Source: Acidobacteriota bacterium
Lineage (GTDB): Bacteria > Acidobacteriota > Vicinamibacteria > Vicinamibacterales > JAHECP01
Reading direction: 5' to 3'
Assembly (NCBI GenBank): GCA_024641665.1
Contig: JAHECP010000002.1
Coordinates: 28,775 to 92,774, forward strand
DNA length: 64,000 nt
Positions 34,886-52,067 of this stretch are shown here, piece by piece (position 1 is the first letter of the stretch; every line of letters begins with the position of its first letter). A program made the position numbers and the translations under genes. The notes under the pieces are model-generated. The model ran no database searches. It was given only the letters and a program-made list of their open reading frames with translations, and was not told the DNA's origin.

Positions 34886-35137
34886 GTGATCATGCCGTCG
34901 AGTGAGCCTGCCAGTCGTGCACGCTGCGCCTACTGCGGACGCTGCTTCGTCCCGATGGCACCCGGGACGCGGCGCTGTCGGCCTTCCTGCGTCCGGGCCG
35001 ACCGGCGCTCGCGTGGGAAGCGTCGGCCGGCGGCCGGGCTCAGACCGCCCGCAGGCGGTAGTCCCCGACCGCCACCGCGATGGCGTGCAGGCCGACGCCG
35101 GCGCCTTCGGTGCGGACCACGTCACCCAGGCAGGTGA
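34886..35137 (+). CDS. possible small zinc-ribbon protein
   Basis: Track ORF of 83 aa: ...RCAYCGRCFVPMAPGTRRCRPSCVRADRRSRGKRR. This is a CxxC...CxxxC followed by a basic tail. The 3' third overlaps the convergent PilZ gene and may not be real. Confidence 0.3.
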   Translation: MIMPSSEPASRARCAYCGRCFVPMAPGTRRCRPSCVRADRRSRGKRRPAAGLRPPAGGSPRPPPRWRAGRRRRLRCGPRHPGR

Positions 35138-35531
35138 CGTCCTCGGCCGGGCCGCCCGGAACGGGGTTGGGGACCTTGAGGATCAGCTCGATGGCCGTGC
35201 GCGGCCGCAGCTTGCGCGGCGCGCGCAGCAGCACCCCCGAGCGGCTGATGTTCTCGGTGACCGCTTCCTGCCAGTCGGCGTCGGCCGCGGCCCGGTAGCG
35301 GACCCGCAGGCCCACCGCGAACCGAGGCGCCCGGGGCTCGCCCGAGGGCCGGAGCTCCTGGACGGGCCTGACGGTCAGGCTGCGGCTGCAGACGATGAAG
35401 GCGAAGGCGTCGATGCCCGGACCCCGCCAGACGTGCCCGCACGTCTGACACGAGAACCACGCCGATTCAGGCGTTGCTTCGAGATGCTGGACGCCGGCGT
35501 GCTGGCCGCAGCGGGGGCACTCTGGGGCCAT
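35040..35531 (-). CDS. Zn-ribbon plus PilZ-like domain protein (putative c-di-GMP receptor)
   Basis: Track ORF of 163 aa. N-terminal CPRCG...CQTCGH. Then PRAPRFAVGLRVRY (a weak RxxxR-type motif) and TENISRSGVLL ((D/N)xSxxG motif). Confidence 0.6.
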   Translation of the reverse strand: MAPECPRCGQHAGVQHLEATPESAWFSCQTCGHVWRGPGIDAFAFIVCSRSLTVRPVQELRPSGEPRAPRFAVGLRVRYRAAADADWQEAVTENISRSGVLLRAPRKLRPRTAIELILKVPNPVPGGPAEDVTCLGDVVRTEGAGVGLHAIAVAVGDYRLRAV

Positions 35532-36100: not shown

Positions 36101-36298
36101 ATGACGCCAACCAGACGGGTGACGACGTTCCGCGTGGATGCGGACCTGCTCGACGCGATGGACGCGCTGCGGGTCCGTGACGGCATTCCGTATTCCGAGC
36201 AGATCCGGCGCGCGCTGCGGCCGTGGCTGGAGCGCAAGGGCGTGCTCCCCACGCGCGCGCGACGGCCCGCGGCCTCGCCGGCGCGCGCCCGCGACTGA
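36101..36298 (+). CDS. ribbon-helix-helix (CopG/antitoxin-like) protein, orphan
   Basis: Track ORF of 65 aa. RVTTFRVDADLLDAMDALRVRDGIPYSEQIRRAL is a typical RHH beta-strand plus two helices. No toxin partner is adjacent. Confidence 0.6.
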   Translation: MTPTRRVTTFRVDADLLDAMDALRVRDGIPYSEQIRRALRPWLERKGVLPTRARRPAASPARARD

Positions 36299-36328
36299 CC
36301 GCCGGGTGCCAGGCTTGCGCAAAAGCGC

Positions 36329-38044
36329 GTGGCGAGCGAACATGGAGCCGTCATGCCCGGCAGTGCCACGTCCGGCGCCGGCAGGCGCCTCGAGCGGGCC
36401 CGGATCCGAGCCGCCGACGCGCATGAGCTCGAGCGGCGGACGAAGCAGCTTCGCGCCGTCGGCGAGATCAGCGCCGCGCTGGCCGCCGCATGGGAGCTCG
36501 AAACCACCCTGGAGGTCATCACGCGAATCACGTCGGAAGTGATGGGCGTGGCCTCGTGCTCCATCTACCTCCAGGAGGAAGGCACCGACCGGCTCGTGCT
36601 CAAGGCCACCACCGGCCTGGCCAGGTCGGCGATCGGCGTGGCCTGGCTGAAGACGGGCGAAGGTCTGACGGGATGGACCGTGGCCCATGGCCGGCCGGTT
36701 GCGGCCTCGGATGCCCGATCGGATCCGCGGTTCAAGCTGCTGCCGGAAACGCACGAGGAGACCCTCTCGTCGCTCGCCGCCGTGCCGCTGACCGTGCAGG
36801 GGCGGACCATCGGCGCGATGAACGTGCAGACGGTCAGGCCGCACGAGTTCATCGAGGAGGACGTCGAGCTGCTCTCGCTCATCGCGAACCTGGCGGCGGG
36901 AGCGCTCGAGAAAGCCAGCCTCTACGACCGCATGCGGCAGCAGATCCGCGAGCTGGAGGGCCTCGTCGAGGTCAGCCGCACGGTCATCTCCCCGCTTTAC
37001 CTGGATGAGATGCTGGGCCTGGTGGCCGAGATGGCCGCACGGGTGATGAACGCCAAGGCGGTCGTGCTGCACCTGATCGAGGAACCCGGCAGCCGGCTGG
37101 TGCTGCGCGCCGCGCACAACACCAGCCCGGCGCGCCGTGGGGCCGCGTCACTCGCCCTCGGCGACGGCATCGTTGGCGACGTGGCGAAGCACGCCAGACC
37201 GCTCATCGTGCCCGACGTGCGCGCGGACGTACGCTACAAGAACCAGGCGCTCGCCGCGCTGGAGGGGCTCGTGTCGCTGCTGAGCGTGCCGCTCGTCGTG
37301 CGCAACCGCACCGTGGGCGTCCTCTCGTGCTACACCGACGCCCCGCACGAGTTCACGGCCAAGGAGGTGGACCTCTTCTCGATGCTCGCCAACCAGACGG
37401 CGCTCGCGATCGAGAACGCGCGCCTCGTCATCAGCTCGGCGGTCGTGCGCGAGATGCACCATCGAGTCAAGAACAACCTCGAAACCGTGGCCATGCTCCT
37501 GCGGCTGCAGGTGAGCGCCGCCGAGGACGATCGGACGAAGCACATCCTCGGCGGGGCCATCACGCGGATCCTGAGCATCGCCGCCGTGCACGAGACGCTG
37601 GGCGAGCAGGGCCTCCGGCTGGTGGACGTCAAGCAGGTGCTCGAACGCGTGGCCGGCTACGCGGCCGAGCTTGGCCCCGGCAAAGACGTGGCCATCGATG
37701 TCGAAGGCGACGCGCTCTCGTTGCCGTCGCGCGCGGCGACCTCGCTCGCGCTGGCCGCGAGCGAGCTCGTGCAGAACGCCATGAAGCACGCGTTCGTGGG
37801 GCGCGATCGAGGACGGATCCTGATCAGTCTCAGAGCCGGGCCGGACGAACACCAGCTGACGGTCGTCGACAACGGCGTCGGCCAGGGCGAGGCGCGGCCG
37901 CGGCGCAAGGGACTCGGCCTCGAGATCGTGCAGACGCTGGTGGCGCACGATCTCAAGGGGCGGTTCGAGATGGCGTCCTCGGGCGACGGCACGCGCGCCA
38001 CCGTCCGGTTTCCCGCGACGGTTGACGATGGAGCGTCGCCATGA
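36329..38044 (+). CDS. cytoplasmic tandem-GAF sensor histidine kinase (HisKA_2-type H-box)
   Basis: Track ORF of 571 aa. Two GAF-like blocks (...SIYLQEEGTDRLVLKATTG...VPLTVQGRTIGAMNVQ and ...VVLHLIEEPGSRLVLRAAHN...VPLVVRNRTVGVLSCY). H-box: EMHHRVKNNLETVAMLLRLQ. ATPase block: ELVQNAMKHAF...DNGVG...GLGLEIV. Confidence 0.85.
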   Translation: MASEHGAVMPGSATSGAGRRLERARIRAADAHELERRTKQLRAVGEISAALAAAWELETTLEVITRITSEVMGVASCSIYLQEEGTDRLVLKATTGLARSAIGVAWLKTGEGLTGWTVAHGRPVAASDARSDPRFKLLPETHEETLSSLAAVPLTVQGRTIGAMNVQTVRPHEFIEEDVELLSLIANLAAGALEKASLYDRMRQQIRELEGLVEVSRTVISPLYLDEMLGLVAEMAARVMNAKAVVLHLIEEPGSRLVLRAAHNTSPARRGAASLALGDGIVGDVAKHARPLIVPDVRADVRYKNQALAALEGLVSLLSVPLVVRNRTVGVLSCYTDAPHEFTAKEVDLFSMLANQTALAIENARLVISSAVVREMHHRVKNNLETVAMLLRLQVSAAEDDRTKHILGGAITRILSIAAVHETLGEQGLRLVDVKQVLERVAGYAAELGPGKDVAIDVEGDALSLPSRAATSLALAASELVQNAMKHAFVGRDRGRILISLRAGPDEHQLTVVDNGVGQGEARPRRKGLGLEIVQTLVAHDLKGRFEMASSGDGTRATVRFPATVDDGASP

Positions 38045-38640
38045 AGCGCTTGCACATCCTGGTCGCAGAGGACGAGTCGCTGATCCGCCTCGGCCTCACG
38101 CGCATTCTGGAAGAAGCCGGCCACACGGTCTACGCGGCGGAGGACGGCCAGGCGGCCCTGACGCTCGCCGACGCGCGGACGCCGGATCTCGTCATCCTCG
38201 ACATCAAGATGCCGCGCATGGACGGCCTCGAGGCGGCCGAGCGTCTCTATGAGCGCGCCGCCGTGCCGATCATCTTCCTGACGGCCTACGGTGATCGCGA
38301 CCTCATCGAGCGGGCGGCCCGGCTGCCGGTGATGGGGTACCTGGTGAAACCGATCAAGGAGTCGGAGTTGCACGCGATGATCGAGGTCGCGACCAGCCGC
38401 TTCGCCGAGCACGCGCACACGGCGCATCGCGCCGCGGAAGGGGCGGCCGCGCTCGCCGAGCACCGGGTGATCGCCGGCGCGAAGGGCCTGATCATGCAGC
38501 GCGATGGTGTGAGCGAGCTCGAGGCCTACGGCCGTCTCGAAGCGCGCGCGCGGCGCGAACGCCGTACGCTGCTCGAGGTGGCCGAGGAGGTCCGGGCCGA
38601 GCTCGGTCCGGCCGCAGCCGACCGATCGCGGCGCGGCTGA
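38041..38640 (+). CDS. response regulator with ANTAR RNA-binding output domain (AmiR/NasT/EutV class)
   Basis: Track ORF of 199 aa with an ATGA overlap onto the kinase stop. Receiver: ILVAEDE...LVILDIKMPRMDG...YLVKP. ANTAR-like: IAGAKGLIMQRDGVSELEAYGRLEARARRERRTLLEVAEEV. Confidence 0.9.
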   Translation: MKRLHILVAEDESLIRLGLTRILEEAGHTVYAAEDGQAALTLADARTPDLVILDIKMPRMDGLEAAERLYERAAVPIIFLTAYGDRDLIERAARLPVMGYLVKPIKESELHAMIEVATSRFAEHAHTAHRAAEGAAALAEHRVIAGAKGLIMQRDGVSELEAYGRLEARARRERRTLLEVAEEVRAELGPAAADRSRRG

Positions 38641-38715
38641 TCCCGATCCGGACCAAGGGCTCGTCCGCGTTGGCGGCGGCCGGGAAGCCCGCCCGAGCCC
38701 GTCGAGAGGTCGCAC

Positions 38716-41223
38716 GTGCCGCGCTACCAGATCAAGACCGCCCCGGTGCCCGCACCGTTCGCCTACCCGGGTCGCTTCCGCCAGGAGGAGACGGACCTGT
38801 ACGTGAAGTACGGACACCGCGTGTTCGACCGGACGGCCGAGCGCGGCGACCCGTACTGGACCGCGGAGATCATCACGCAGACCTGGTACCAGGCCGAGAC
38901 CGGGCGCATCCCTATCAGTGGCGCCGGCTACGGCGGACCGTTTTCGGGCGAGGGCTTCGACGGGATGTGGCTGGACATGTCGGAGATCGTCCGGCCGACG
39001 CGCGACGGGATTCACGGGCGCGAGTACATCTCCACGGCCGTCGTGCTGGGCGGCGCGCCCGAGATGCTCGAGTTCGATCGCGCGGGTCGGTTGCTCACGG
39101 ACCTGCCGGCGACGCTCGATCTGCCGTTGCCGGTCGCCTTCGGTCCGCTGCCGTGGGCGCTGCCCGGTCGCGCGGCGCTCAGCGCCTTGTCCGAGGCCGC
39201 CGACCGCCTGGGCACGCTGGCGATCCACACGACCGACGCGCTCGAAGAGGCCAGCCACGATCGCCTCGCCGTCCGTCTGGGTGCGGCCGATTTCGATCGC
39301 CCCGCCATCGTCGACGCCGTGCGCGCGCGCGCCCCGGTCTACGTCGAAATCGAGGAAGAAGCCTGGGATCTCGAGCGCTGGGAACGCGCGGGCGAGCTGT
39401 TCCCGGGCTCGCTCGTGGCCCTGCGTCGCGCCCTCGGACCCGACAGCGCGGCCGAGGTCGAGCGCCTGCTGCGACGCGGCGTCCGGGTGTTTCATCTCTA
39501 CGCCGACCTCGAGGGGCGCGACACGGCCGGCCGGCCGCTGCCCGACTCGCTGCGCGCCGTGCACACGCACGCGGTGCAGCGTCGCTGGCGCGACAGCCTG
39601 TCGTTCCTGGTGAGCGGCGGTATCGCCGCCGCCGAGCACGTCCCCAAGATCGTGGCGTGCGGCGCCGACGTGGCGGTGCTCGACCTCGTGCCCCAGGTGG
39701 CGTGGGGCTGCGCGCTGTGGGCCGATCAGCGGACCTGCCATGCCGAGACGAAGGAGGTCGACCCGGCATGGGGCGCGCAGCGCCTGGTCAACCTGATGGC
39801 GGCCTGGCGCGACCAGCTGCTCGAGGCCCTCGGCGCGATGGGGATGCGAGAGGTGCGACGCCTCCGCGGGGAGACCGGCCGCGTGATTTTCGACGAGATC
39901 GAAGCGCAGGCCTTCCGGCGGCTCGTGCCCGCCACGGCGCCGCGCGCCGCGTACCGCCGGCTCAACGAGGGGAGCGGCGCCGAAGGTGACCTGCGCTGGA
40001 CGCACGGACTGCTGCTCGCCACCAGGGAGCAGGCACGGCTCGGCCGGCCGGGCGGCGAGCTGGAGTTTCGCGTGGGGGCCTCGGGCGGCGGATTCGATCG
40101 CCTGGCCTTTGGCTTCGAGCTGCAGGATGCCTGGCGCGAGCAGCACGCCGCGCTGGTCGCCGGAGAGACCGGAACGGCCGGATGGCTCGCGGACCCGGCG
40201 GCGTTCGATCTCGGCCTGGATCTCAACCGCCGCGGCGACGACCGCCCGCGCCTGCGCATCCCCGTTCCCTGGTACGGCGCGGGCATGTCGTTCGGCAGCA
40301 TCAGCCTGCAGGTGATGCTCGCCCGGGCGCGCGCGGCGGCCGAGCTCGGCACGTTCATGTCCACCGGCGAGGGCGGCTATCCCAACGAGCTGGCGCAATA
40401 TGCCGACCACGTCATCACGCAGGTGGCGACGGGGCTCTTCGGGGTGCGCGAAGAGACCATCCAGCGCGCGCGGCTGGTCGAGATCAAGTATGCCCAGGGG
40501 GCCAAGCCCGGACTGGGCGGCCACCTGCTCGGCAACAAGAACACCTTGCCGGTGGCCTCCGAGCGCGAGGCCGTGCAAGGCACGTCGCTCTTCAGTCCGT
40601 TTCCGTTCCACAGCGTCTACTCGGTCGAAGACCACAAGAAGCACATCGACTGGCTCAAGCAGGTCAATCCGCGCGCGCTCGTGAGCGTGAAGGTCAGTAC
40701 GCCGACCGATGTGGACATGGTGGCCGTGGGCTCCTACTTCGCCGGCGCGCACATTGTCCACCTCGACGGAGCGTACGGCGGGACCGGGGCGGCGCCCGAG
40801 ATCGCGAAGCGGAACATCGCCATGCCCATCGAGTACGCGATCCCGAAGGTGCATCGCTTCCTGACCGAGGAGGGGTTGCGCGACGAGATCACCCTGATGG
40901 CATCGGGAGGCCTTCGCACGGCCTACGACGTGGCCAAGGCGATCGCGCTCGGTGCCGACGGCTGCGTGATCGGGATGGCGGAGCTGGTCGCGATGGGGTG
41001 CTCGCGCCTGGGCGCCTGCGAGCAGGGGTTGGGCTGCCCCTTTGGCATCACGACCACCGACCCCGAGCGCAGCAAGCTGATCGTCGTCGAGACGGCGGCG
41101 GGCCAGGTCGTCAACTTGTACAGGAGCTGGCTCTGGCAGCTCGCGGGGATCCTGCGGGCGCTCGACATGCGGAGCATTCACGAGTTGCGCGGCCGCACCG
41201 ACGTGCTCGTGTACCTGGAGTGA
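38716..41223 (+). CDS. glutamate-synthase-family FMN/Fe-S (GltB domain 2-like) protein with an extra degenerate N-terminal copy of the barrel
   Basis: Track ORF of 835 aa. The C-terminal half carries GAGMSFGSIS, STGEGGYPNE, IKYAQGAKPGLGGHLLG, SPFPFHSVYSVEDHK, LDGAYGGTGAAP, ASGGLRTAYDVAKAIALGADG and CSRLGACEQGLGCPFG. The N-terminal half repeats a weaker version (VSGGIAAAEHVPKIVACGADVAVLD, RDQLLEALGAMGMREVRRLRG). Confidence 0.85.
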   Translation: MPRYQIKTAPVPAPFAYPGRFRQEETDLYVKYGHRVFDRTAERGDPYWTAEIITQTWYQAETGRIPISGAGYGGPFSGEGFDGMWLDMSEIVRPTRDGIHGREYISTAVVLGGAPEMLEFDRAGRLLTDLPATLDLPLPVAFGPLPWALPGRAALSALSEAADRLGTLAIHTTDALEEASHDRLAVRLGAADFDRPAIVDAVRARAPVYVEIEEEAWDLERWERAGELFPGSLVALRRALGPDSAAEVERLLRRGVRVFHLYADLEGRDTAGRPLPDSLRAVHTHAVQRRWRDSLSFLVSGGIAAAEHVPKIVACGADVAVLDLVPQVAWGCALWADQRTCHAETKEVDPAWGAQRLVNLMAAWRDQLLEALGAMGMREVRRLRGETGRVIFDEIEAQAFRRLVPATAPRAAYRRLNEGSGAEGDLRWTHGLLLATREQARLGRPGGELEFRVGASGGGFDRLAFGFELQDAWREQHAALVAGETGTAGWLADPAAFDLGLDLNRRGDDRPRLRIPVPWYGAGMSFGSISLQVMLARARAAAELGTFMSTGEGGYPNELAQYADHVITQVATGLFGVREETIQRARLVEIKYAQGAKPGLGGHLLGNKNTLPVASEREAVQGTSLFSPFPFHSVYSVEDHKKHIDWLKQVNPRALVSVKVSTPTDVDMVAVGSYFAGAHIVHLDGAYGGTGAAPEIAKRNIAMPIEYAIPKVHRFLTEEGLRDEITLMASGGLRTAYDVAKAIALGADGCVIGMAELVAMGCSRLGACEQGLGCPFGITTTDPERSKLIVVETAAGQVVNLYRSWLWQLAGILRALDMRSIHELRGRTDVLVYLE

Positions 41224-41230
41224 GGGATCC

Positions 41231-43807
41231 ATGCGAAGCGAGGACGTCCGCGCCGTGCTGAACGCGCGCGCGCCGCTCGTGGAAGAGGTCGGCGGCCGAC
41301 CCGCGAACCGCGAGGCAACCGAGGGTGGCTGCGGCGTGTTGGGGTTCGCCGCGAGCGTTGCCATCCCCGGCCGACATGTCATCACCGCCAGCGAACAGAT
41401 GCACAACCGGGGCAACGGGAAGGGTGGCGGTCTGGCCGCGGCCGGGCTCGATCCCGCGCAGATCGGGGTGGCGCCCGACGTGCTGCGGACGCACTACCTC
41501 ATCCAGGTCGCGTACCTCGACGCCGGGGCGCGCGCCGAAGTCGAACGCGAGTGTCTGTCGAGCCGCTTCGACTTCGCGGCCGCCTACGCCGTCGAGACGC
41601 TCGACGACTGGCGGGCGGTGCCGGGTCTCGCGCTGCCGCCGCCGGAGGTCGTGCGTTACGTGTGCCGCGTCAGGCCCGAGGAGCTCGCGCGGTTCGCCGA
41701 GGAGCACGCCCTGCGCCATCTGCCCGCGCGCCAGGTCGAAGACGAGTTCGTCTATCAGAACAGCTTCCGGCTGAATCAGCGCTACTACGCGAGCCTGGGC
41801 CGCAAGCGCGCGTTCGTCCTCTGCCATGGTCGCGACCTGCTCGTCTTCAAGATCGTCGGCTACGCCGAGCAGGCCGCGCGGTACTATCGGCTCGAGGACC
41901 TGAAGGCGCACGTCTGGATCGCGCACCAGCGGTACCCCACCAAGGGTCGGGTGTGGCACCCGGCGGGCGCGCATCCCTTCATCGGCGTCAATGAAGCGCT
42001 CGTCCACAACGGCGACTTCGCCAACTATCACCGCGTCTGCGAATACCTCGAGCAGCGCAACATCGTTCCGCTGTTTCTGACCGACACCGAAGTGAGCGTC
42101 CTGCTGTTCGACCTCTGGGATCGCTTGTACGGGTACCCCCTCGAGGTCGTGCTCGAGGCGCTCGCGCCCACCTCCGAGCGGGACTTCGACATGCTGCCGG
42201 AGGACAGGCGGACGCTCTACCGCGCCGTGCAACAGACGCACCTGCAGGGCAGCCCCGACGGCCCGTGGTTCTTCATCGTCGCGCGCAGCCGGCCCGACGC
42301 CGGCGAGTGGCAGCTGCTGGGCATCACGGACACGTCGATGCTGCGCCCGCAGGTCTTCGCGTTGTACGAGCGCGGCGCGGGCTCGGAGCAGGTCCGCATC
42401 GGGCTCATCGCGTCCGAGCGGCAGGCCATCAACGCGTGCCTGCGGAGCCTGGCGGCGGAGGATCGTCGCTTCGAGCCGCTGGCCGATCGCTACTGGGTGG
42501 CGCGCGGCGGCTCGCACACCGACGGGGGTGCCTTCACGTTCACGGTCACGCACCGTGAGCGCGGTGCCGAGCTCGTGTGTCGCAACAAGTTCGGCGCGGA
42601 GGTCACGGTCGCCGCGCCCACGGGCGGCGCGGCGCGCCCCGTCCGCTCGACCGTGCCCATCCCACCACCTGACGGCAACAGCGCGGCCTGGTTTGAAGCG
42701 GCGTGCCCGGCCGTCACGGCGGCCGACCTCTCGACGCTCACCGGGTGGCTCGACGCGCGCGTTCGCCTGAGCCGCGAGCGTGACGAGGCACGCGACGCGA
42801 GCCTGGCCGCGCTCACGCTCCTGCGTGACCGGCGGTTCGACCCAGGGGTGAAGAAGCGCTCGACCGTGCTCGCGGCGGTCGATCGCGCGCTGTGCGCCAT
42901 GCTGCGGGAGGTGCCGGACCTCGGCGACTCGCGCGTGTCGCGTTACCGGCGTCTGGACGCGGCCACCGCGCCGGCCCTGCGCGCGCCCGGGGGCGTCGAG
43001 TCCGTGCTCGTCGTCGACGCCCGCGAGTGCCAGGCCGAGGGCGAGCGGTCGGCGGCGCGTCTGCTGTGCCGGGCGCACGAGCTCGGCTGGCGATGTTTCG
43101 TGGTGTTCGATTGTCGCGGCGGCCGCTTCGTCGGCTGCGGCCTCGGCCTCGGCACCCACGACACGCGCATCGACGTGTTCGGTGATTCCGGCGACTACCT
43201 CGGCTCGGGGCTGGACGGCGCCGAGGTGGCGGTCCACGGAGATGCGCAGGACCAGGTGGGACAGATCTTGAAGGGGGGACGCCTGATCGTGCACGGCGAC
43301 GTGGGCCAGACGTTCCTGTACGGGGCCAAGGGGGGCAGCATCTTCGTGCTCGGCTCCGCCGCGGGTCGCCCGCTCATCAACGCCGTGGGGCGGCCGCGAG
43401 CCGTCATCAACGGCACGTGTCTCGACTATCTCGCCGAATCGTTCATGGCCGGAGACCCTCTCAACGGCGGCGGCTTCGTCATTGTCAACGGTGTGACGTT
43501 TGGCGGCGATGGCAGCATCGACGAGCTGGAGACCCCGTATCCCGGCAGCAACTTGTTCTCGCTCGCATCTGGCGGGGCCATCTACTTGCGTGACCCGCGT
43601 CGCAGCGTGGAGGACAGCCAGCTCAATGGAGGGCAGTTCGCGCCGTTGGCAGAAGCGGACTGGAGGCTGATCGAGCCGTGTCTGCAGGAGAACGAGGCGC
43701 TCTTTGGGATATCGGTGGAGCGGTTGCTGACGTTCGGTGGCGAACGACTCTCGCCGGAGCGCGTGTATCGCAAGGTCACGGTGCGACCCCTCGACGTGCT
43801 CCACTGA
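41231..43807 (+). CDS. fusion of a class-II (Ntn) glutamine amidotransferase (GltB domain 1-like) and a GXGXG beta-helix domain (GltB domain 3 / FwdC-like)
   Basis: Track ORF of 858 aa. N-terminal EGGCGVLGFA, NRGNGKGGG, AHQRYPTKG, HNGDFANY. C-terminal repeated Gly turns: VFGDSGDYLGSGLDGAEVAVHGDAQDQVGQILKGGRLIVHGDVGQTFLYGAKGGSIFVLGSAAGRP. Confidence 0.85.
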   Translation: MRSEDVRAVLNARAPLVEEVGGRPANREATEGGCGVLGFAASVAIPGRHVITASEQMHNRGNGKGGGLAAAGLDPAQIGVAPDVLRTHYLIQVAYLDAGARAEVERECLSSRFDFAAAYAVETLDDWRAVPGLALPPPEVVRYVCRVRPEELARFAEEHALRHLPARQVEDEFVYQNSFRLNQRYYASLGRKRAFVLCHGRDLLVFKIVGYAEQAARYYRLEDLKAHVWIAHQRYPTKGRVWHPAGAHPFIGVNEALVHNGDFANYHRVCEYLEQRNIVPLFLTDTEVSVLLFDLWDRLYGYPLEVVLEALAPTSERDFDMLPEDRRTLYRAVQQTHLQGSPDGPWFFIVARSRPDAGEWQLLGITDTSMLRPQVFALYERGAGSEQVRIGLIASERQAINACLRSLAAEDRRFEPLADRYWVARGGSHTDGGAFTFTVTHRERGAELVCRNKFGAEVTVAAPTGGAARPVRSTVPIPPPDGNSAAWFEAACPAVTAADLSTLTGWLDARVRLSRERDEARDASLAALTLLRDRRFDPGVKKRSTVLAAVDRALCAMLREVPDLGDSRVSRYRRLDAATAPALRAPGGVESVLVVDARECQAEGERSAARLLCRAHELGWRCFVVFDCRGGRFVGCGLGLGTHDTRIDVFGDSGDYLGSGLDGAEVAVHGDAQDQVGQILKGGRLIVHGDVGQTFLYGAKGGSIFVLGSAAGRPLINAVGRPRAVINGTCLDYLAESFMAGDPLNGGGFVIVNGVTFGGDGSIDELETPYPGSNLFSLASGGAIYLRDPRRSVEDSQLNGGQFAPLAEADWRLIEPCLQENEALFGISVERLLTFGGERLSPERVYRKVTVRPLDVLH

Positions 43808-44067
43808 CGGCGGTCGGCCGAGCTCTCGGTTCGTCGAGCCGCCCCGCGCGCGGCGGAGGTCCCGCGCCTGCGACGCCTTCGTCCCTCCCCAAGATGAGGC
43901 TGACCGACGTCCCGTCGCTGCCGAAGTAGATCCGGAATACCGGGCCGAACGGTTGTCCGGAGCCCGCCGCTTCTGCGGACAGCCTTCGCCAGCTGAGCTG
44001 GGCTTGCCAGCCGTGGCTCACCCGAGAGGCGTGGCAGCCTTCGCGGGTGAGGGCTGGTGGACGGTGC

Positions 44068-44140
44068 CCTTCGACTCGCTTCGCTCGCTCCCTTCGACTC
44101 GCTTCGCTCGCTCAGGACACCATTCGACTCGCCTGCGTTG
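44068..44140. repeat. 23-bp tandem direct repeat (2 full copies plus a partial third)
   Basis: CCTTCGACTCGCTTCGCTCGCTC occurs twice back-to-back, followed by CATTCGACTCGCCTGCG. It is intergenic, between the GltS-like operon and the permease stop. Confidence 0.8.
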
Positions 44141-44212: not shown

Positions 44213-46678
44213 CTACTCCTGCCTCAGCGCGATGATCGGATCGACGGCGGTGGCGACACGAATCGGATGGTAGGCCCCTACAGTCGCCGCGATCAGCAGA
44301 AGCACGCAGACAGTGCCGTAGGTCAAGGCATCGGTAGGCGTGACGCCGAAGAGAAGGGCGTTCATGCTTCGGCCGGCGATTAGGGTGGTGATCACTCCAG
44401 CCAGAAGTCCCGCTGCGACCACGCGAGACATCCGGACTGCGAAGAACCCCACGATCTGCTTGTGGCGTGCACCCAGGGCCATTCGGATGCCGATCTCGCG
44501 GGTGCGCTCGGCCACGTGCTGCGCGAGTAGCGCGTACACTCCAACCACCGCCACGACCAGCGCGAGCGCAGCAAGCAGCGAGAAGAGCAGCGCGGCAAAC
44601 CGCCAGGGAGCCACCTGACTGTCGACTACCTGCTGCATCGGTCGGATGGCATCGACTACCGCGGAAGGGTCGACTGAACGGATCTCCCTCCGCAGCCGTC
44701 TCAGCAGGTTCGCGGGATTCCCTGATGCCTTCACGATGAAGTGTTTGACGGCGTCTTCGGACTGCAGGTACGGCTTGTACACATCGAACGTCGCTTCCGT
44801 GAGGCCGCGGTAGCGGGCGTCGCCCACCACCCCGACCACCGTCTGCCAGTCTCCTTTTGGCCGGTCATAGCTCGCCATGAGGCGCTTGCCAATCGGATCT
44901 TGGCCAGGCCAGAGACGCCTGGCGGCCGAGAGGCTGACGATGACGACGGGAGGAGACTGCTCGGTGTCGTGTTCGCTGAACGCGCGTCCTCGTAGAACGG
45001 GAATTCGCATCATGCTGAGGTAGTCGGGAGTGACGGCTTCGGCGTTCAGCGTGGGGTTCTTCCTCGCCGCGTCGCGATCGCTCGGCGACTGTCCTTCGAG
45101 GACGACCGCTGCACCGGAACCGATCGGCCCGAACTCGAACGGCCGCAAGTAGATTGCCGAGACCGCCGAGACTCCGGGCAGCCGGCGGACACGTTCGATC
45201 GCGTGCCGATAGAAGCGGCTGTTCTGGCTCTTGCCGTACTTGCCCGCCGGTGCCAGCACGTCGAACGTCACCAGGTCCGCGGGATCGAAACCCAAGTGAA
45301 CGTGTTGAATGGCGTGAGAGCTTCGAACTGTCAGCGTCGCGGCGACGAGCAGCACGACAGCCAGCGCGGTCTGCACGACGAGTAGGCCGTTACGGACGCG
45401 GAGGGTGGGCGTCCGGCTCATCGTCTCGTCCAATGCGACGAGGCTTGACGGCGTGCGGCGCAGCACGATGAGTAGTGGAACGACGCCGCAAGCGAGCGCC
45501 GCCAGCGCGCCGGCTCCCAGGGCGAACGCCGTGAGCGCGGGCGTCCGCAGCGTCACCTCGTTCAGGCGCGGCACGCTCGTGGGAGTGAGCGCTGTCAGGA
45601 ACGGAACGCACCAGAGCGCGAGCACGACGGCGCCCGCCATCCCGACAGCCACCAGCGCTGCGCCTTCGGCCGCTGCCTGTCGCATGAGATGCGACCGCTC
45701 TGCCCCAAGTGCGATCTGAATCGCCAACTCGCGCCGCTTGGCCGACAGGCGCGCCAGCAGCAATCCGATCACGTTCGCACACGTGAGCAACAGAACCAGC
45801 GCGGCCGCACCAATCAGCAGCAGGAGCGCCGGACGCGTCTGTCCGAAGATGTGGTCAGCGAGCTGCGTCACGACGATCGACCGGCCGGTTCCGGGCTTGC
45901 CGCTCCCCGTCAGACGCCCCACGATCGCGTCCATGTCGGCACGTGCCTGCACGAGACTGACACTGGATCTCAGGCGCCCGAGCACGTACAGAATCCCGAG
46001 ACCGCGCTCCTCCAGCATGTCGAACCCGGCCCCAACGGAAAGACGGGCGAGCGTCGGTGCAATCGGCAGCCAGAGTGCAGCGCCGCGCGGATAGTCGAAA
46101 TCTGCCGGCATCACGCCCACAACCGTCGTCGCCCGCATGCCGCCGCCGTCGTCGATCATGGCGGTACGACCGATCACGCCCGGGTCGGACCCGAACTGAC
46201 GGCGCCAGGTCGAATCGCTCAGCACCGCAACGGCAGGGCCCGACCGGTCATCGTCGGCCCTCGTCAACCCACGACCGAGCTCCGGCCTGGCGCCCAGCAC
46301 ATCAAAGAAGCCTCCTGACACCGCTGCGAACGGAACGATGACGGGGCCGTCCTTCTGCATCAGGCGCGCCGACCAGTTGACCGAACCGGTCGCCGCGAGC
46401 TCGGTGAAGGACCTGTTCTGTGATTCCCAGTCCCGGAAGTCGCGGTAGGACACCTCCCAGACTGACACCGACTGCTTTTCGGCGCGCTCCCACATGATGA
46501 CCAGGGACTGCTGGTCCGCCACGGGAAGCGGGCGGAGCAGAACCGAGTACGCGACGGCGAATATCGCGATGTTCGCACCCAGGCCCAGCGCCAAGATTCC
46601 CGCGGCCGGTATCGCCACCGAGCCGTCGCGGCGAAAGAACCGGAATCCGTGGGCGACGCTCTCGCGCAGCAGTGACAT
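44213..46678 (-). CDS. ADOP-type duplicated FtsX/MacB-like permease (orphan, no adjacent ABC ATPase)
   Basis: Same frame as track ORF 44213..46795, starting at MSLLRESVAHGFRFFRRDG. There are two FtsX-like 4-TM modules, each preceded by a large periplasmic domain. C-terminus: AVDPIIALRQE*. Confidence 0.9.
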   Translation of the reverse strand: MSLLRESVAHGFRFFRRDGSVAIPAAGILALGLGANIAIFAVAYSVLLRPLPVADQQSLVIMWERAEKQSVSVWEVSYRDFRDWESQNRSFTELAATGSVNWSARLMQKDGPVIVPFAAVSGGFFDVLGARPELGRGLTRADDDRSGPAVAVLSDSTWRRQFGSDPGVIGRTAMIDDGGGMRATTVVGVMPADFDYPRGAALWLPIAPTLARLSVGAGFDMLEERGLGILYVLGRLRSSVSLVQARADMDAIVGRLTGSGKPGTGRSIVVTQLADHIFGQTRPALLLLIGAAALVLLLTCANVIGLLLARLSAKRRELAIQIALGAERSHLMRQAAAEGAALVAVGMAGAVVLALWCVPFLTALTPTSVPRLNEVTLRTPALTAFALGAGALAALACGVVPLLIVLRRTPSSLVALDETMSRTPTLRVRNGLLVVQTALAVVLLVAATLTVRSSHAIQHVHLGFDPADLVTFDVLAPAGKYGKSQNSRFYRHAIERVRRLPGVSAVSAIYLRPFEFGPIGSGAAVVLEGQSPSDRDAARKNPTLNAEAVTPDYLSMMRIPVLRGRAFSEHDTEQSPPVVIVSLSAARRLWPGQDPIGKRLMASYDRPKGDWQTVVGVVGDARYRGLTEATFDVYKPYLQSEDAVKHFIVKASGNPANLLRRLRREIRSVDPSAVVDAIRPMQQVVDSQVAPWRFAALLFSLLAALALVVAVVGVYALLAQHVAERTREIGIRMALGARHKQIVGFFAVRMSRVVAAGLLAGVITTLIAGRSMNALLFGVTPTDALTYGTVCVLLLIAATVGAYHPIRVATAVDPIIALRQE

Positions 46679-46846
46679 GGCGATGACCTTCGAGTGCGGC
46701 TGGCGGAATATTAGACCACAGCGCACGGCCCCGAGGGCAATTGCACCAGCTTTCTTAGGGGCTGCTGCTGTCCTCTGGTGCGTCGGCCTGCGCACTGCGG
46801 GGCGTGCCGTGCCGGGTCGGCGGGCAGGTGGCTGCGCGCACGCGTT

Positions 46847-47707
46847 CTAGGCCCTGCGCGTATGACAGATCTCGGCCAACACAGGATTGAGCCAGTTCGC
46901 AAGGAGATCGTGCGCTTCCTTCAGTTCCACGACCGTGCCGACGAGTTCGGCTTCTCTGCGATAGCTGATGGCAAGTTCGCGTGGAGGAGCCGGCAGACGC
47001 TCGGGGACCGGGTGTGTCGCGCGACGACCGAAGACCCGCTGAACGGTCTCTCGCAGTGCGGCGGTGTCGACACGTCCGTGCTGTCGGATGAGTAGGAGAT
47101 CCACGAGATCTCTTGCTCGCATGGTCCCGCGGCCCTTGTACGTTCGGGTGTAGGCATGGACCTTCTCGGCGACCTGCCGCCCCAGCGGTACCAGTAGAAC
47201 TTCGATCGGCTCGAGACCAAGCTCGGCCAGGAGTCCCGGGCGTCGTCCGGGCTGAGCATCCCAGGGCGCAGGTGCGGTGATGCTGACGTCGACTTGAATC
47301 GGCTCGAACGCCCGGTTGGCGATGGCGCTGTCCAGCCTGTACCGGACGGCCAGGCCTACACCTGCTTCGCGCAGTTCCTCGGTACCGACGATGGCAAACT
47401 CGAAGTAGTCACCCACGTCCTCGATGGCCGCGCGCTGGAGGTCTGCACGCGCCGCCTCGGCACCGTGCAGATGATCCGCATCGAGGTCGACCGAAACGCG
47501 GGCCCACTTGCCGAGCCTGGTCTCGAGAGCCATGCCGCCCTTGAGGGCCCAACGATCGGGCGCCACCCTTGCCAGGCGTACGAGCAGTCGCTCGAGAGCG
47601 GCCTGGCGACGGACGATGTACGCCGGTGTGTTGAGACGCTTGGCCCGATCGCGCAGCTTGGCCTCGACGGCGGCGCGAAAGGCTGCGGGCGTGGCGTATT
47701 CACGCAC
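46847..47707 (-). CDS. abiEii: AbiEii/AbiGii-family nucleotidyltransferase toxin (type IV TA)
   Basis: Same frame as track ORF 46847..48058, starting at the GTG (VREYATPAAFRAAVEAKL). It contains ERLLVRLARVAPDRWALKGGMALETRL...VSVDLDAD. The start overlaps the AbiEi stop by 8 nt. Confidence 0.8.
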   Translation of the reverse strand: MREYATPAAFRAAVEAKLRDRAKRLNTPAYIVRRQAALERLLVRLARVAPDRWALKGGMALETRLGKWARVSVDLDADHLHGAEAARADLQRAAIEDVGDYFEFAIVGTEELREAGVGLAVRYRLDSAIANRAFEPIQVDVSITAPAPWDAQPGRRPGLLAELGLEPIEVLLVPLGRQVAEKVHAYTRTYKGRGTMRARDLVDLLLIRQHGRVDTAALRETVQRVFGRRATHPVPERLPAPPRELAISYRREAELVGTVVELKEAHDLLANWLNPVLAEICHTRRA

Positions 47708-48335
47708 GGTTGCCTGCCTCCTCGATGGCCCGGTCGACGAGCTGCCGCACACGGGCCGACCGGTCGCTGACGGCCGCGCGTAGCTCATCGGGCGCGACGA
47801 GACCTCTGGCGAGGGCGCGTGCAGTTGCTTCGGCGACCACGCTCGGGTCAGCGCCGACGTCCGCCACATCAGCGATGGTCCGAGCCGGAGATGTGATCCG
47901 CACGCCGAAGCGGCTCGCCACCTCGGCGCGGCGTAGCGGGGTGTTGGTGGTATGCAGCCTGACGGCGGTCCCGCGCTGCCGCGTCCGAGGTCGGCGGTCC
48001 CGGGGCAGCGTGACATGAAGTTCCTGCGACCGCGACGGCGCCAGGTCGTACAGGGCAAGGGCGGTTTCGTGGGACACCACCGCCTGGCGTGACGCGAGTC
48101 TCAGCCAGGTCGCAACGATGTCCTCGTGCGAACTCGTCGGCACGCCCACCAGCCGGTAGAAGCCGCGGCTGACCCGCTCGAAATGGCCGGCAGCGACGTG
48201 GTGGACGAGGCTGCGGGCGCTGTAGCCGAGCGCTCTCGCCTGCGCTGCCGTGAAATAGCCGGCCTGGGTCGTCGCCAGCTCGAAGAGCTGCTGGAGCTTC
48301 CGTGTCCGTGAAGGAGCAGACTGTCTAGGCTCCAT
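47700..48335 (-). CDS. abiEi: AbiEi-family antitoxin / transcriptional regulator
   Basis: Same frame as track ORF 47700..48746. Sequence: MEPRQSAPSRTRKLQQLFELATTQAGYFTAAQARALGYSARSLVHHVAAGHFERVSRGFYRL.... An alternative ATG lies 21 nt upstream (48356). Confidence 0.8.
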   Translation of the reverse strand: MEPRQSAPSRTRKLQQLFELATTQAGYFTAAQARALGYSARSLVHHVAAGHFERVSRGFYRLVGVPTSSHEDIVATWLRLASRQAVVSHETALALYDLAPSRSQELHVTLPRDRRPRTRQRGTAVRLHTTNTPLRRAEVASRFGVRITSPARTIADVADVGADPSVVAEATARALARGLVAPDELRAAVSDRSARVRQLVDRAIEEAGNRA

Positions 48336-48439
48336 GTCCCTGTCAGTATACGCCATACGTAATACAAATGGGACATGGCAAGTGAATGAGCGCGTGCCAC
48401 GGGCGCGGGTGGAGCGGCTCGGAAGTCCGCCTTCGCGGT

Positions 48440-48650
48440 GATCCCCAGACCGCTGCTTCGGCGGGCAGCCTTCGCGGTGAAACATGGCTTGCCCAGCCGA
48501 AGTGCCGCTAGGCAAGCGAGAGGCGGCGCGAAGACGCTCTAGACTGGAGGCCCGCCGTCGCGACGCTTGAGCCTCACGTCGCTTCGGTGGGCAGCCTTCG
48601 CGTGAAGGTGACTCGCTGGCTTGCCAGCCGAAGCTCGGCGCAGCCGAGCG
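48440..48650. repeat. REP-like intergenic repeat family (GCAGCCTTCGCG ... GGCTTGCC(C)AGCCGAAG), two copies
   Basis: CTTCGGCGGGCAGCCTTCGCGGTGAA..GGCTTGCCCAGCCGAAG and CTTCGGTGGGCAGCCTTCGCGTGAAGG..GGCTTGCCAGCCGAAG. Related copies lie at about 43983-44050. Confidence 0.6.
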
Positions 48651-48655
48651 AAGGC

Positions 48656-48744
48656 TGGTGCCGGAGGAGGGAATCGAACCCTCACGGGGGGTAAGCCCCA
48701 CGGGATTTTGAGTCCCGCGCGTCTGCCAGTTTCGCCACTCCGGC
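48656..48744 (-). tRNA. tRNA-Leu (anticodon CAA), CCA-encoded
   Basis: Reverse strand: GCCGGAG TG GCGAAACTGGCAGACGC G CGGGA CTCAAAA TCCCG TGGGGCTTACCCCCCGT GAGGG TTCGATT CCCTC CTCCGGC ACCA. It has a 7-bp acceptor stem, a canonical T-loop, a long variable arm and anticodon CAA. Confidence 0.93.
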
Positions 48745-48801
48745 ACGAACGAGGTGGTCAGGCCGCGATCATCGTACTCCGCGCACGGACGCGGCGTGCG
48801 C

Positions 48802-49074
48802 CTAGCCCGCCTTCCGCAGTCCGCGCGCCGCCTGCCAGAGGTCCGCGTCGGCCTGCAGGCCCATCCAGAACTCGGGGGACGTGTCGAAGAGTCGCGCCAG
48901 CCGGAGCGCGGTGTCCGCAGTGATCCCGCGCTTGCCTCGGATGATCTCGTTCAGGCGATTGAGCGGGATCTCCATCCGTCGCGCCGCTTCGACCTGCGTC
49001 AGCCCGCTCGGCCGGAGAAACTCCTCGAGCAGCATCTCCCCGGGCGGTGTCGGGGGCCGCTTCAGGTCCAGCAC
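48802..49074 (-). CDS. higA: HigA-family antitoxin (XRE-type HTH)
   Basis: Same frame as track ORF 48802..49122, starting at the GTG at 49074 (VLDLKRPPTPPGEMLLEEFLRPSGLTQVEAARRMEIPLNRLNEIIRGKRGITADTALRLARLF). The start is 14 nt after the higB stop. Confidence 0.85.
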   Translation of the reverse strand: MLDLKRPPTPPGEMLLEEFLRPSGLTQVEAARRMEIPLNRLNEIIRGKRGITADTALRLARLFDTSPEFWMGLQADADLWQAARGLRKAG

Positions 49075-49087
49075 GGACCGCGGTCCG

Positions 49088-49378
49088 CTAATGGTAGTCT
49101 TCGCACGCGACGTCGTAGGCATGGCCGTCTTCGAACCGAAACGTGATCCGATACCGATCGTTCACTCGAAGGCTGTACGTCCCCGCTCGATCACCCTTCA
49201 ACGCTTCGAGTCGGTTGCCCGCCGGCAGCTGAAGGTCGCCGAGCGTTCGCGCGCGGTGCAGGGCGTCCAGCTTGCGTCGCACGCCAGGCCACAGCGCCTT
49301 CGGCACGCGACGGGCAGCCTTGGTCTCCCGGCCGATGAAGACATCGGCCGTGGCCGCGTCCGCCAACGAGCGGATCAT
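49088..49378 (-). CDS. higB: HigB-family toxin (RelE/ParE superfamily, plasmid-maintenance killer protein)
   Basis: Track ORF of 96 aa: MIRSLADAATADVF...LDALHRARTLGDLQLPAGNRLEALKGDRAGTYSLRVNDRYRITFRFEDGHAYDVACEDYH. Confidence 0.8.
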   Translation of the reverse strand: MIRSLADAATADVFIGRETKAARRVPKALWPGVRRKLDALHRARTLGDLQLPAGNRLEALKGDRAGTYSLRVNDRYRITFRFEDGHAYDVACEDYH

Positions 49379-49384
49379 CGGCCG

Positions 49385-49413
49385 ATGTTACACGATTCAC
49401 CGGTAATCATCAA
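49385..49413 (-). promoter_or_regulatory. candidate sigma-70 promoter for higBA (nearly leaderless)
   Basis: The minus strand reads TTGATG-17 nt-TAACAT. The -10 element ends 6 nt before the higB ATG. Confidence 0.35.
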
Positions 49414-49459
49414 CTCGACGGACGGCCTCGTGGCGCGTGCGAGCAGGGCCGGTCGGGTC

Positions 49460-49765
49460 TCAGCTCCCTTCCGCGCGGATCTTCTCGATCTTCCGGTCCC
49501 GCTCCTCGTTGAGTCTCTGTCGTTCGGCGCGGTACTGCGTGACGAGATCCGCCACCCCCTCCGGGTCCACCGCGGCAGCTCTCGCGACCGGCTCGTGCCG
49601 GATCTCGATGTCGGCCAGCTTGGCCTCGTACTGGCTCCGCACCTCGGCGATCGCCGCCTTCTGCGCGTCGGTCAGCGACCGGCGCTCGACCCCCTCCTCG
49701 GCGTCCCTCTTCCGAAGCCGCTCCATCGCCAGCTCGTAGGCTGACTTCAGCCCTTCATCCGCCAT
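49460..49765 (-). CDS. hypothetical charged / coiled-coil protein (101 aa)
   Basis: Track ORF: MADEGLKSAYELAMERLRKRDAEEG...RQRLNEERDRKIEKIRAEGS. The composition is coding-like. I recognise no family. Confidence 0.5.
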   Translation of the reverse strand: MADEGLKSAYELAMERLRKRDAEEGVERRSLTDAQKAAIAEVRSQYEAKLADIEIRHEPVARAAAVDPEGVADLVTQYRAERQRLNEERDRKIEKIRAEGS

Positions 49766-49884
49766 CGGATCGCTGCTCCTCGTTTCGGCCTGCCGGTGCC
49801 CTCGTCAACGCTGGTGACAGATCGATTGTAGTGCAGGGCTGCCGGGCCGGCTGACCTGTCCGCCTTAGCTTCAGCGGAGGCGGA

Positions 49885-49950
49885 AAGCCGGCCCCCACAG
49901 GGTGAGAAGGGGCTCGGGGCCGGCTAAAGCCGGCCCCCACGTACAGAAGG
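49885..49950. repeat. GCCGGCCCC-type palindromic intergenic repeat
   Basis: GAAAGCCGGCCCCCACAGGGTGAGAAGG and CTAAAGCCGGCCCCCACGTACAGAAGG. GGGGCCGGCT-AA-AGCCGGCCCC (49917-49938) forms a perfect 10-bp palindrome. Confidence 0.7.
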
Positions 49951-50224
49951 ACGGGGGGCTTTTTCCCCGGCCTGCGGCATTCTCCCCAGCCCGCACGGGC
50001 CCGTTTTCGCGTCGAGAATCCGGCAAACCCTCCGCCTCAGTCGCATCCATGGCCGAAAATTCGAGGTTTTCCGGCCCCGGACCCCTGGCACCATCATTGC
50101 TCCGACGGGGGTCGACCGCTGGTTCAGATTCCGCTTCACGTCCGGCGCACGGGACGTCCGCGCGCGGCGCCAAGCGAGGCGGCGGGCCCGATCGGGCCCA
50201 CTCCGACGCGGGGCAGACGGCATT

Positions 50225-52018: not shown

Positions 52019-52067
52019 ACCAGAACGCGCAGGCCGGGCCCCGGGTCCGGCGCGACGGAGTGGACGA

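Follow-up and report, generated by a model that had tools for sequence, protein, structure and literature searches.

A four-gene cluster in an Acidobacteriota genome raises the question of which reaction is catalyzed by two proteins that are built from glutamate synthase parts, and whether the signaling pair encoded just upstream controls them. The cluster is situated in a 64-kb stretch of contig JAHECP010000002.1 (positions 28,775 to 92,774), here called the window, to which all coordinates without a locus prefix refer. It encodes, in this order, a sensor histidine kinase, a REC-ANTAR response regulator, and the proteins P3 and P4. Glutamate synthase, or glutamine:2-oxoglutarate amidotransferase (GOGAT), is the principal way in which nitrogen enters glutamate. 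Its textbook forms are NADPH-, NADH-, and ferredoxin-dependent, and there is in addition a poorly studied archaeal split form. On the strength of the sequence analysis described here, we consider it rather probable that P3 and P4 form a GOGAT that is co-transcribed with a nitrogen-sensing pair resembling PdtaS and PdtaR.

The four open reading frames (ORFs) are located on the plus strand at positions 36329–38044 (kinase), 38041–38640 (regulator), 38716–41223 (P3), and 41231–43807 (P4). The GC content at their third codon positions is 0.88–0.90, as expected of coding sequence in a genome with 70% GC, the approximate value for the window. The kinase stop codon and the regulator start codon overlap in the sequence ATGA, P3 is separated from the regulator by 75 nt, and P4 from P3 by 7 nt, just as the first-pass annotation had described. 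We take the four genes to be a single transcription unit. The kinase ORF itself stands, but its start had been placed at the GTG at 36329, which is now regarded as the alternative. The ATG at 36353 is more probable, in agreement with the start called in the relative L164 and with a local alignment. A block reading TTGCGC, 17 nt, GAACAT (36315–36343, +) directly 5′ of the kinase start is a tentative candidate for a promoter. Its position is kept and its sequence largely kept in the relatives L164 and L165. It scores below the consensus threshold in a promoter scan, and the promoter and terminator scan of the plus strand of the operon gave no match.

P3 (835 residues; 38716–41223, +) consists of two barrels. 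The second, an FMN (flavin mononucleotide)/Fe-S barrel at approximately residues 510–835, matches the Pfam family Glu_synthase (PF01645, E 2e-99, residues 510–815), and the C-terminal 330 residues of P3 can be aligned, with E values of about 1e-50, to the GltS FMN domains of Azospirillum, Bacillus, and Synechocystis. The first barrel, at approximately residues 105–385, resembles the central domain of GltB. When the AlphaFold2 (AF2) model of P3, with a predicted local distance difference test (pLDDT) score of 70, was compared with GltB alpha chains by Foldseek, the alignments covered 670–820 columns with E values of about 1e-23 and ran through the central and the FMN domain in the usual order. 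Weak Glu_syn_central matches are also found in many P3 homologues. For these two reasons the N-terminal barrel is assigned as the central domain. What had been called an extra barrel is therefore the homologue of a known GltB domain, and the permutation that had been proposed disappears for P3: its central and FMN domains are in canonical order, and P4 is the remainder of GltB without those two domains. Apart from this barrel, the domain content first claimed for the four proteins was borne out by Pfam. The AF2 models are of moderate confidence (pLDDT 66 and 70), and fold matches were used for P3 and the GXGXG part only, because the glutaminase core of P4 was modeled poorly.

The residues expected of a glutamate synthase active site are present in P3. 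When residue equivalents are numbered from an alignment with Synechocystis GltS, Gln-594, Lys-597, Arg-617, and Glu-552 of P3 correspond to Gln-969, Lys-972, Arg-992, and Glu-903, and they are invariant in the family. We take these GltS residues to form the 2-oxoglutarate/iminoglutarate site seen in the Synechocystis GltS structures. The putative 3Fe-4S ligands Cys-762, Cys-768, and Cys-774 (codons within 40999–41037, +) align with the cluster cysteines of GltB and are invariant across 22 family members. P3 is thus predicted to combine the FMN barrel with the residues of a 2-oxoglutarate site. The other two structural elements of a glutamate synthase, the central domain and the GXGXG β-helix, are present in P3 and P4.

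P4 (858 residues; 41231–43807, +) begins with a presumed propeptide of 33 residues, followed by a class II (N-terminal nucleophile) glutaminase from Cys-34 to about residue 445, a variable segment and four-helix linker (about 450–620), the GXGXG β-helix (about 625–800), and a strongly conserved C-terminal extension. Pfam detects GXGXG (PF01493, 49.5 bits versus a cut-off of 32.5) and, weakly, a class II glutamine amidotransferase (GATase), and the four-helix unit is confidently predicted by AF2 at approximately residues 480–560. The N-terminal 33 or so residues are conserved and end in EGGCGV. The cysteine of this motif, Cys-34 (codon 41330–41332, +), is nearly invariant in the family alignment (A1), aligns with Cys-1 of Azospirillum GltB, the Monoglobus GATase, and MgsA, and is presumed to become the N-terminal nucleophile upon removal of the propeptide. 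It is followed by the motifs HNRG, HQRYPTKG (with the Arg and Thr), HNG, and TDTEV, which are conserved in 22 family members. Within them Arg-234/Thr-237, Asn-260–Gly-261, and Asp-285 are conserved and, like Cys-34, align with GltB, the Monoglobus GATase, and MgsA. With both the nucleophilic cysteine and the glutamine-binding residues in place, P4 is predicted to be a class II glutaminase. Its sequence matches in the Protein Data Bank (PDB) are FwdC, GlmS, and GltB, and by both hidden Markov model and PDB sequence searches the glutaminase is nearer to GlmS/PurF than to the GltB amidotransferase. The best Foldseek match of P4 is GltB, with a weak score.

To place the two proteins among known enzymes, the split GOGAT of Monoglobus pectinilyticus, Azospirillum GltB, and an mgsABC-type (N-methylglutamate synthase) cluster from a Paracoccus yeei plasmid were used as comparators. 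In BLAST comparisons, the P3 FMN domain scored 225 bits with the clostridial split GOGAT, 189 with Azospirillum GltB, and 95 with MgsC. For the P4 GATase the clostridial protein gave 102 bits and MgsA 57 bits over 104 residues, with no match to Azospirillum GltB, and for the GXGXG part the scores were 76 (clostridial), 45 (Azospirillum GltB), and 41 (MgsB). P3 departs from GltB at two active-site positions, where Glu-975 is replaced by Leu-600 and Gln-978 by His-603. These Leu/Ile and His variants are common to the clostridial split GOGAT. MgsC, in turn, contains GDGG in place of GEGG and lacks the three cluster cysteines. Based on the shared active-site variants and the BLAST ranking, P3/P4 is classified as a diverged relative of the archaeal/clostridial split GOGAT and not as an Mgs enzyme.

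The family is large. Relatives of P4 fall into more than 7,600 clusters at 90% identity (E ≤ 1e-5). The best 120 of these are 61–82% identical to P4, come from several phyla, and include Gemmatimonadales, Acidobacteriota, Eisenbacteria, and Anaerolineae, and those that are named are called "glutamate synthase." The relatives of P3 behave in the same way and are named "glutamate synthase-related protein." At least 594 species carry the family in a scan of one genome per species, and a metagenome scan yielded hundreds of additional loci. On clustering at 50% identity the family collapses to few full-length representatives, which indicates strong sequence constraint. The two-protein form spans Chloroflexota, Gemmatimonadota, Acidobacteriota, Desulfobacterota, Planctomycetota, Myxococcota, and others, and databases label it by domain only. 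A literature search for the P3/P4 architecture returned nothing specific. With thousands of annotated members, the two-protein pattern, which the first-pass annotation did not recognize, is not rare; the fusion of GATase to GXGXG does set it apart from GltB, MgsABC, and the split GOGAT compared here. Six proteins of 1,600–3,150 residues (P0275, P0297, P0317, P0345, P0359, and P0361) contain a region 30–38% identical to P4 and may be larger fusions of glutamate synthase parts.

Of the 112 loci with enough upstream sequence, 102 have P3 and P4 side by side, and among the family loci (L002–L165) three architectures can be distinguished. The window type has a fused P3 of about 830 residues, in the split type P3 is replaced by two proteins (P3N and P3C), and the long type has a fused P3 of about 990 residues. 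Both split proteins, P3N (about 465 residues) and P3C (about 515 residues), carry an N-terminal ferredoxin-type Cys motif, and the long form contains two or three such motifs. The motif is absent from the window-type P3 in 41 of 42 loci, and the Cys-motif count found none in the P3 of the window. In one locus (L059), P3N gives a PF01645 match, by which the N-terminal half of P3 appears as a diverged paralogue of the FMN barrel. Across 163 loci the neighbors include GlnA (23 loci), Amt (12), CarA (14), CarB (15), glutamine-dependent NadE (15), and PurF (7). Because these proteins use glutamine or handle ammonium, they fit a GOGAT. The neighborhood survey that the first-pass annotation had in mind, for glnA or for gmaS/mgd, came out on the side of the former: the GlnA proteins near family members are type I, above the TIGR00653 cut-off, at 23 of 163 loci, and no gmaS/mgd-type gene was found in the window.

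The redox genes found near the enzyme differ between the architectures. No homologue of GltD, GlnA, Amt, Hdr (heterodisulfide reductase), or MetF is encoded in the 64-kb window, and the earlier remark that no NAD(P)H subunit adjoins the enzyme thus holds over the whole window. Among the relatives, MvhD and/or MetV-MetF are encoded directly upstream on the same strand at 26 of 30 split-type and 9 of 18 long-type loci, and at none of 27 window-type loci. In several loci with ferredoxin domains, the genes directly downstream encode HdrC, HdrB, and an HdrL of 1,400–1,480 residues, and they often overlap. The HdrL type has been described for Desulfobacterium autotrophicum (PMC2702500). In the protein found here, Fer4_20 and Pyr_redox_2, a GltD-like module, are embedded in an HdrA-like frame. 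In anaerobic lineages the split form P3N, P3C, P4 is tightly operonic with MvhD, MetV-MetF, and HdrC-HdrB-HdrL, for example at L022:4961–16238, L030:4464–18993, L038:519–14439, L116:2110–14586, L161:262–13347, and L012:6152–19028. A GltD-like, that is β-subunit-like, module next door supports the GOGAT assignment, and the arrangement suggests that the anaerobic forms have an Hdr-type electron supply, as a heterodisulfide reductase-linked glutamate synthase. The searchable literature yielded no report that connects GOGAT with Hdr/MetVF. A more far-reaching proposal, which we put forward tentatively and regard as unlikely, is that P3/P4 is the catalytic core of a third, phylogenetically very widespread class of glutamate synthase, with an electron input unlike that of either GltD-NAD(P)H or ferredoxin-dependent GOGAT (Fd-GOGAT). 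The ancestral form in anaerobes, with a split P3N/P3C and ferredoxin domains, would have used an Hdr-type, possibly electron-bifurcating, input coupled to methylene-tetrahydrofolate reductase, and the lineage of the window would have lost these domains and partners and gained the GAF kinase/ANTAR nitrogen sensor.

The signaling pair consists of a cytoplasmic kinase (36353–38044, +), in which Pfam identifies two GAF domains, HisKA_2, and HATPase_c, and a regulator (38041–38640, +) with Response_reg (E 5e-30) and ANTAR (E 3e-13) domains. Among solved structures the regulator is closest to 1S8N (Rv1626; annotation, putative antiterminator), to which it aligns over the full length with an E value of 5e-37. 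As in other ANTAR two-component systems, the REC-ANTAR regulator adjoins its kinase gene, here with the ATGA overlap, and by sequence the pair is PdtaS/PdtaR-like. The kinase GAF domains score best against GAF domains of the PtsP(EI-Ntr)/NifA type, which we presume to sense glutamine and 2-oxoglutarate, and this similarity is treated as a lead only. The four-gene unit recurs in L004, L014, L076, L082, L083, L086, L091, L095, L096, L100, L164, L165, and one further contig, with 60–87% protein identity to the window. The pair stands beside the enzyme in 6 of the 29 window-type loci having enough upstream sequence and at none of the true split-type or 990-residue loci; the sole split-class match, L082, is a window-type P3 with an interrupted ORF. 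The kinase and ANTAR genes thus adjoin the enzyme genes only in the clade of the window and in some Chloroflexota, so that the concern that the pair might not be conserved beside the enzyme is justified in part: the linkage exists but is clade-specific (12 loci and one contig).

Upstream of the operon, a zinc-ribbon PilZ protein is encoded at 35040–35531 (−), and PilZ and GAF-GGDEF proteins are found upstream in the closest relative (L164:2053–3168 and L164:415–1950, respectively). These neighbors hint at genes for cyclic di-GMP signaling nearby. PdtaS itself reportedly binds cyclic di-GMP.

A target RNA of the regulator was looked for in front of P3 and of the kinase. The 75-nt spacer between the regulator and P3 (38641–38715, +) contains the sequence GGC-CGGGAA-GCC at 38678–38689, with a putative regulatory role, and a GAGAGG ribosome-binding site. 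The spacer folds no better than shuffled sequences (z = +1.39). The motif, GGCCNNGAAGCC, occurs twice in the window versus 0.41 times expected. Its second occurrence, at 7241, was rejected as a regulatory site; it is situated inside a coding sequence and is probably due to chance. In the closest relatives the spacer is 2–30 nt long, and across the clade of the window it measures 2–105 nt and has no terminator. Rfam scans with gathering and E-value thresholds, which covered the window region and three relatives, gave nothing relevant. Just 5′ of the kinase there is a 65-residue ribbon-helix-helix-like ORF (36101–36298, +) with a weak match, below cut-off, to the aCcr1 family. A dual hairpin with A1/G4 hexaloops at 36229–36271 was discarded as a candidate: it is contained in the 3′ end of this ORF, is not kept in L164 or L165, and is of a kind that occurs at chance frequency.

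A distinct leader is found in Chloroflexota, where the spacer between the regulator and P3 is 129–326 nt long. It consists of a promoter of the TTGACA/TGTGGTATAGT type, an invariant GGGCC-NN-GAAGCCC, a terminator with a U-tract, and the ribosome-binding site and start codon of P3, in this order. The terminator covaries, with six pairs changed on both sides. The 3′ arm (GCCC) of the hairpin is at the same time the base of the terminator, and stabilization of the hairpin would therefore weaken termination. A covariance model of the leader finds 11 Chloroflexota loci, always just upstream of P3, and nothing else in 2.3 Mb of loci. The leaders are at L005:7383–7446, L010:265–326, L014:7401–7466, L023:7358–7425, L076:7279–7343, L091:2515–2575, L095:2422–2480, L096:5223–5282, L100:1917–1977, L122:3023–3090, and L139:803–862. 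No Rfam family matches them. At six Chloroflexota loci the promoter and hairpin-terminator leader of P3 come directly after the ANTAR gene. In 4 of the 10 leader loci found by exact pattern match no ANTAR gene adjoins, which indicates that action in trans exists. The Chloroflexota leader is probably an attenuator that is read by the ANTAR regulator, and the regulator in the window may control other nitrogen genes in trans.

Two other functions for the enzyme were considered. The proposal of the first-pass annotation, that the acceptor is a compound other than 2-oxoglutarate, would make P3/P4 an amidotransferase or amine-transferring flavoenzyme comparable to N-methylglutamate synthase. The replacement of the GltB residues by Leu-600 and His-603, the lack of an adjoining NAD(P)H subunit, and the weak matches of P4 to MgsA and MgsB would agree with this. 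However, the same substitutions are found in the clostridial split GOGAT, the site residues and Fe-S cysteines are invariant, and MgsC differs in its GDGG, in the missing cysteines, and in a score of 95 bits compared with 225 and 189. Moreover, Mgs consists of three small chains encoded beside a type III ligase, the GlnA proteins encoded close to members of the family are of type I, and the neighbors of the family are genes for glutamine consumption and ammonium. The proposal is left unsupported, and another acceptor appears quite improbable. We consider it highly improbable that P3/P4 is mainly a redox or electron transfer module of Hdr/MvhD/MetVF-type complexes instead of a nitrogen assimilation enzyme. 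This would account for MvhD and/or MetVF upstream of most split-type and half of the long-type loci, and for the HdrC, HdrB, and HdrL genes that follow directly, often overlapping, in several of them. But none of the 27 window-type loci has MvhD, MetVF, or Hdr neighbors, and the ferredoxin-type motifs are lost in this type. If the complex only carried electrons, the fully conserved glutaminase site would serve no purpose. These anaerobic operons contain glnA, carAB, and purF as well, and the GltD-like module in HdrL fits a GOGAT.

A third alternative leaves the enzyme as it is and concerns its regulation. The kinase and ANTAR genes may merely be co-transcribed with P3 and P4 as members of the same nitrogen regulon, with RNA targets elsewhere, for example in glnA or amt leaders, and with P3-P4 expression set by the promoter alone. 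The short spacing of regulator and P3 in the closest relatives agrees with this, as does the conserved promoter-like block that abuts the kinase start and leaves almost no leader. The window operon likewise has no terminator or significant structure and no match to the leader model, and four Chloroflexota loci have the leader without an adjoining ANTAR gene. On the other hand, the six Chloroflexota loci in which the ANTAR gene precedes the promoter and leader of P3 point to direct control there, and the linkage of the four genes is kept across 60–87% protein identity. We judge targets elsewhere to be rather unlikely. The earlier statement that the ANTAR system drives the enzyme can be retained as plausible in view of the conserved synteny and of the leader terminator in relatives, but no target RNA was found in the window itself.

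A GOGAT co-transcribed with a nitrogen-sensing pair thus remains the explanation that we prefer. In all probability P3/P4 is a true glutamate synthase, with a widespread two-protein architecture that derives from the split archaeal/clostridial GOGAT. What the data show directly is the gene order, the domains, the conserved residues, the distribution of the family, the conserved neighborhoods, and the leader terminator of relatives; catalytic activity, propeptide cleavage, the electron donor, the kinase ligand, and the RNA target of the regulator are inferred. Several observations weigh against this explanation. The literature search found no biochemical report on any family member. The glutaminase core of P4 has low AF2 confidence. 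The cluster cysteines of P3 are spaced C-x5-C-x5-C as opposed to C-x5-C-x4-C in GltB, and P3 is shorter than the Azospirillum and Synechocystis GltS proteins at a point after GEGGE (a gap versus 1LLW), where the missing insertion is presumably the ferredoxin loop of Fd-GOGAT. The window contains no GltD-like gene and no evident electron donor, and no conserved redox partner was found near window-type loci. On the regulatory side, the covariance-model and dual-hairpin searches suggested earlier produced nothing in the window beyond chance: canonical A1/G4 dual hairpins number 22 versus 21.7 expected, the Chloroflexota leader model has no match, and there is no terminator inside the operon. Even in Chloroflexota the hairpin loop, C-N-N-G-A-A, matches the canonical pattern at G4 and departs from it at A1, and a conserved second hairpin is lacking.

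In the mechanism that we propose, P4 would shed its propeptide of about 33 residues, exposing Cys-34. The class II glutaminase would then hydrolyze glutamine, and the ammonia would pass to the FMN barrel of P3 and add to 2-oxoglutarate. The resulting 2-iminoglutarate would be reduced by FMN, which would in turn be reduced again through the 3Fe-4S-type cluster. A structural role, as in GltB, is proposed for the GXGXG helix of P4 and for the central-like barrel of P3. The electron donor is likely to be encoded away from the locus, and our guess is a ferredoxin-like carrier. In evolutionary terms, the amidotransferase and GXGXG proteins of a split GOGAT lineage would have been fused, as would the two barrels, and the ferredoxin-type domains lost. 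The tandem-GAF kinase probably senses a cytoplasmic metabolite of nitrogen or carbon, for which 2-oxoglutarate and glutamine are candidates by analogy with the GAF domains of NifA and EI-Ntr. It would phosphorylate the REC-ANTAR regulator, which would then bind RNA hairpins and raise the expression of nitrogen assimilation genes.

Once established, the activity and the electron donor would correct models of nitrogen assimilation in many uncultured lineages of soil and sediment. The operon also joins an ANTAR regulator with its kinase and with a defined metabolic target on one short piece of DNA, and the Chloroflexota leader provides a concrete candidate RNA for ANTAR testing. The questions of most value concern the electron donor and the coupling to Hdr, MvhD, and MetVF in anaerobes.

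The DNA downstream of the operon contains several further features. A tandem direct repeat with a unit of approximately CCTTCGACTCGCTTCGCTCGCTC occupies 44064–44140 (+), in the intergenic region downstream of P4. The region 44213–49800 has a lower GC content (0.66–0.68) and encodes a MacB/FtsX-type permease, an AbiEii/AbiEi toxin-antitoxin system, and HigB-like and helix-turn-helix proteins, as seen from the gene calls of L001. An 86-nt tRNA gene is present at 48659–48744 (−), and the region looks like a small island inserted next to a tRNA gene. Beyond it, 6 kb downstream of the operon, the α and β subunits of a 2-oxoacid:acceptor (ferredoxin) oxidoreductase are encoded at 49928–52964 (+; TIGR03710, 549 bits; TIGR02177, 265 bits). 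This pair could link 2-oxoglutarate or ferredoxin metabolism to the enzyme, and its linkage to the enzyme genes is not conserved in relatives.

Comparison with characterized systems shows how far the locus combines known elements. Like PdtaS of Mycobacterium, the kinase is soluble, with N-terminal GAF sensing and a HisKA_2 phosphotransfer domain, and the regulator aligns with Rv1626 over its full length. Mycobacterium PdtaS has a GAF-PAS sensor, whereas the kinase here has two GAF domains. In contrast to both PdtaS/PdtaR and EutW/EutV, the pair shares one operon with its presumed target genes, and no canonical dual A1/G4 hairpin target was found here. The prediction of ANTAR targets upstream of glutamate synthase genes dates from 2012 (PMC3369931); compared with the target published there, the Chloroflexota leader has one hairpin, and its logic is similar but not canonical.

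The enzyme shares with MgsABC (GlxBCD-type) the same three families, namely a class II GATase-like protein, a GXGXG protein, and a GltB-type FMN barrel. Mgs, however, consists of three small separate chains encoded beside a type III ligase, and neither a gmaS/type III ligase gene nor mgd genes, which would accompany MgsABC, are present in the 64-kb window. P3 and P4 between them contain all four domain types of GltB (the NADPH-GOGAT α chain and Fd-GOGAT; PDB codes 1EA0 and 1OFD), including the GXGXG helix. P3 keeps the 2-oxoglutarate/FMN-site residues and the three cluster cysteines, and the glutaminase is preceded by a propeptide, as in Azospirillum GltB. Unlike in GltB, these domains are distributed over two polypeptides, in the gene order central-FMN followed by GATase-linker-GXGXG. 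GltBD comprises a single α chain of about 1500 residues together with GltD, whereas the chains here have 835 and 858 residues and no GltD partner in the window. Fd-GOGAT is likewise a single chain, and P3 lacks its insertion after the GEGGE motif.

The closest resemblance is to the split cluster of Monoglobus pectinilyticus, which encodes a GATase, an FMN protein, a 4Fe-4S protein, an FAD oxidoreductase, and a GXGXG protein, and which we take to be of the same kind as MJ1349–1351 of M. jannaschii. A split GOGAT in this sense has separate GATase, FMN (with a 2×[4Fe-4S] domain), and GXGXG proteins, an arrangement that the window does not have, and there is no ferredoxin domain, 4Fe-4S protein, or FAD oxidoreductase nearby. 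The identity to the Monoglobus proteins is only 26–38%. They are the best BLAST matches among the comparators for all three parts and share the GGH and Ile/Leu variants and the glutaminase motif NG(K/L)GGG with the window proteins, in which the GATase is fused to GXGXG through a linker of 170 residues and the central-like and FMN barrels form one chain.

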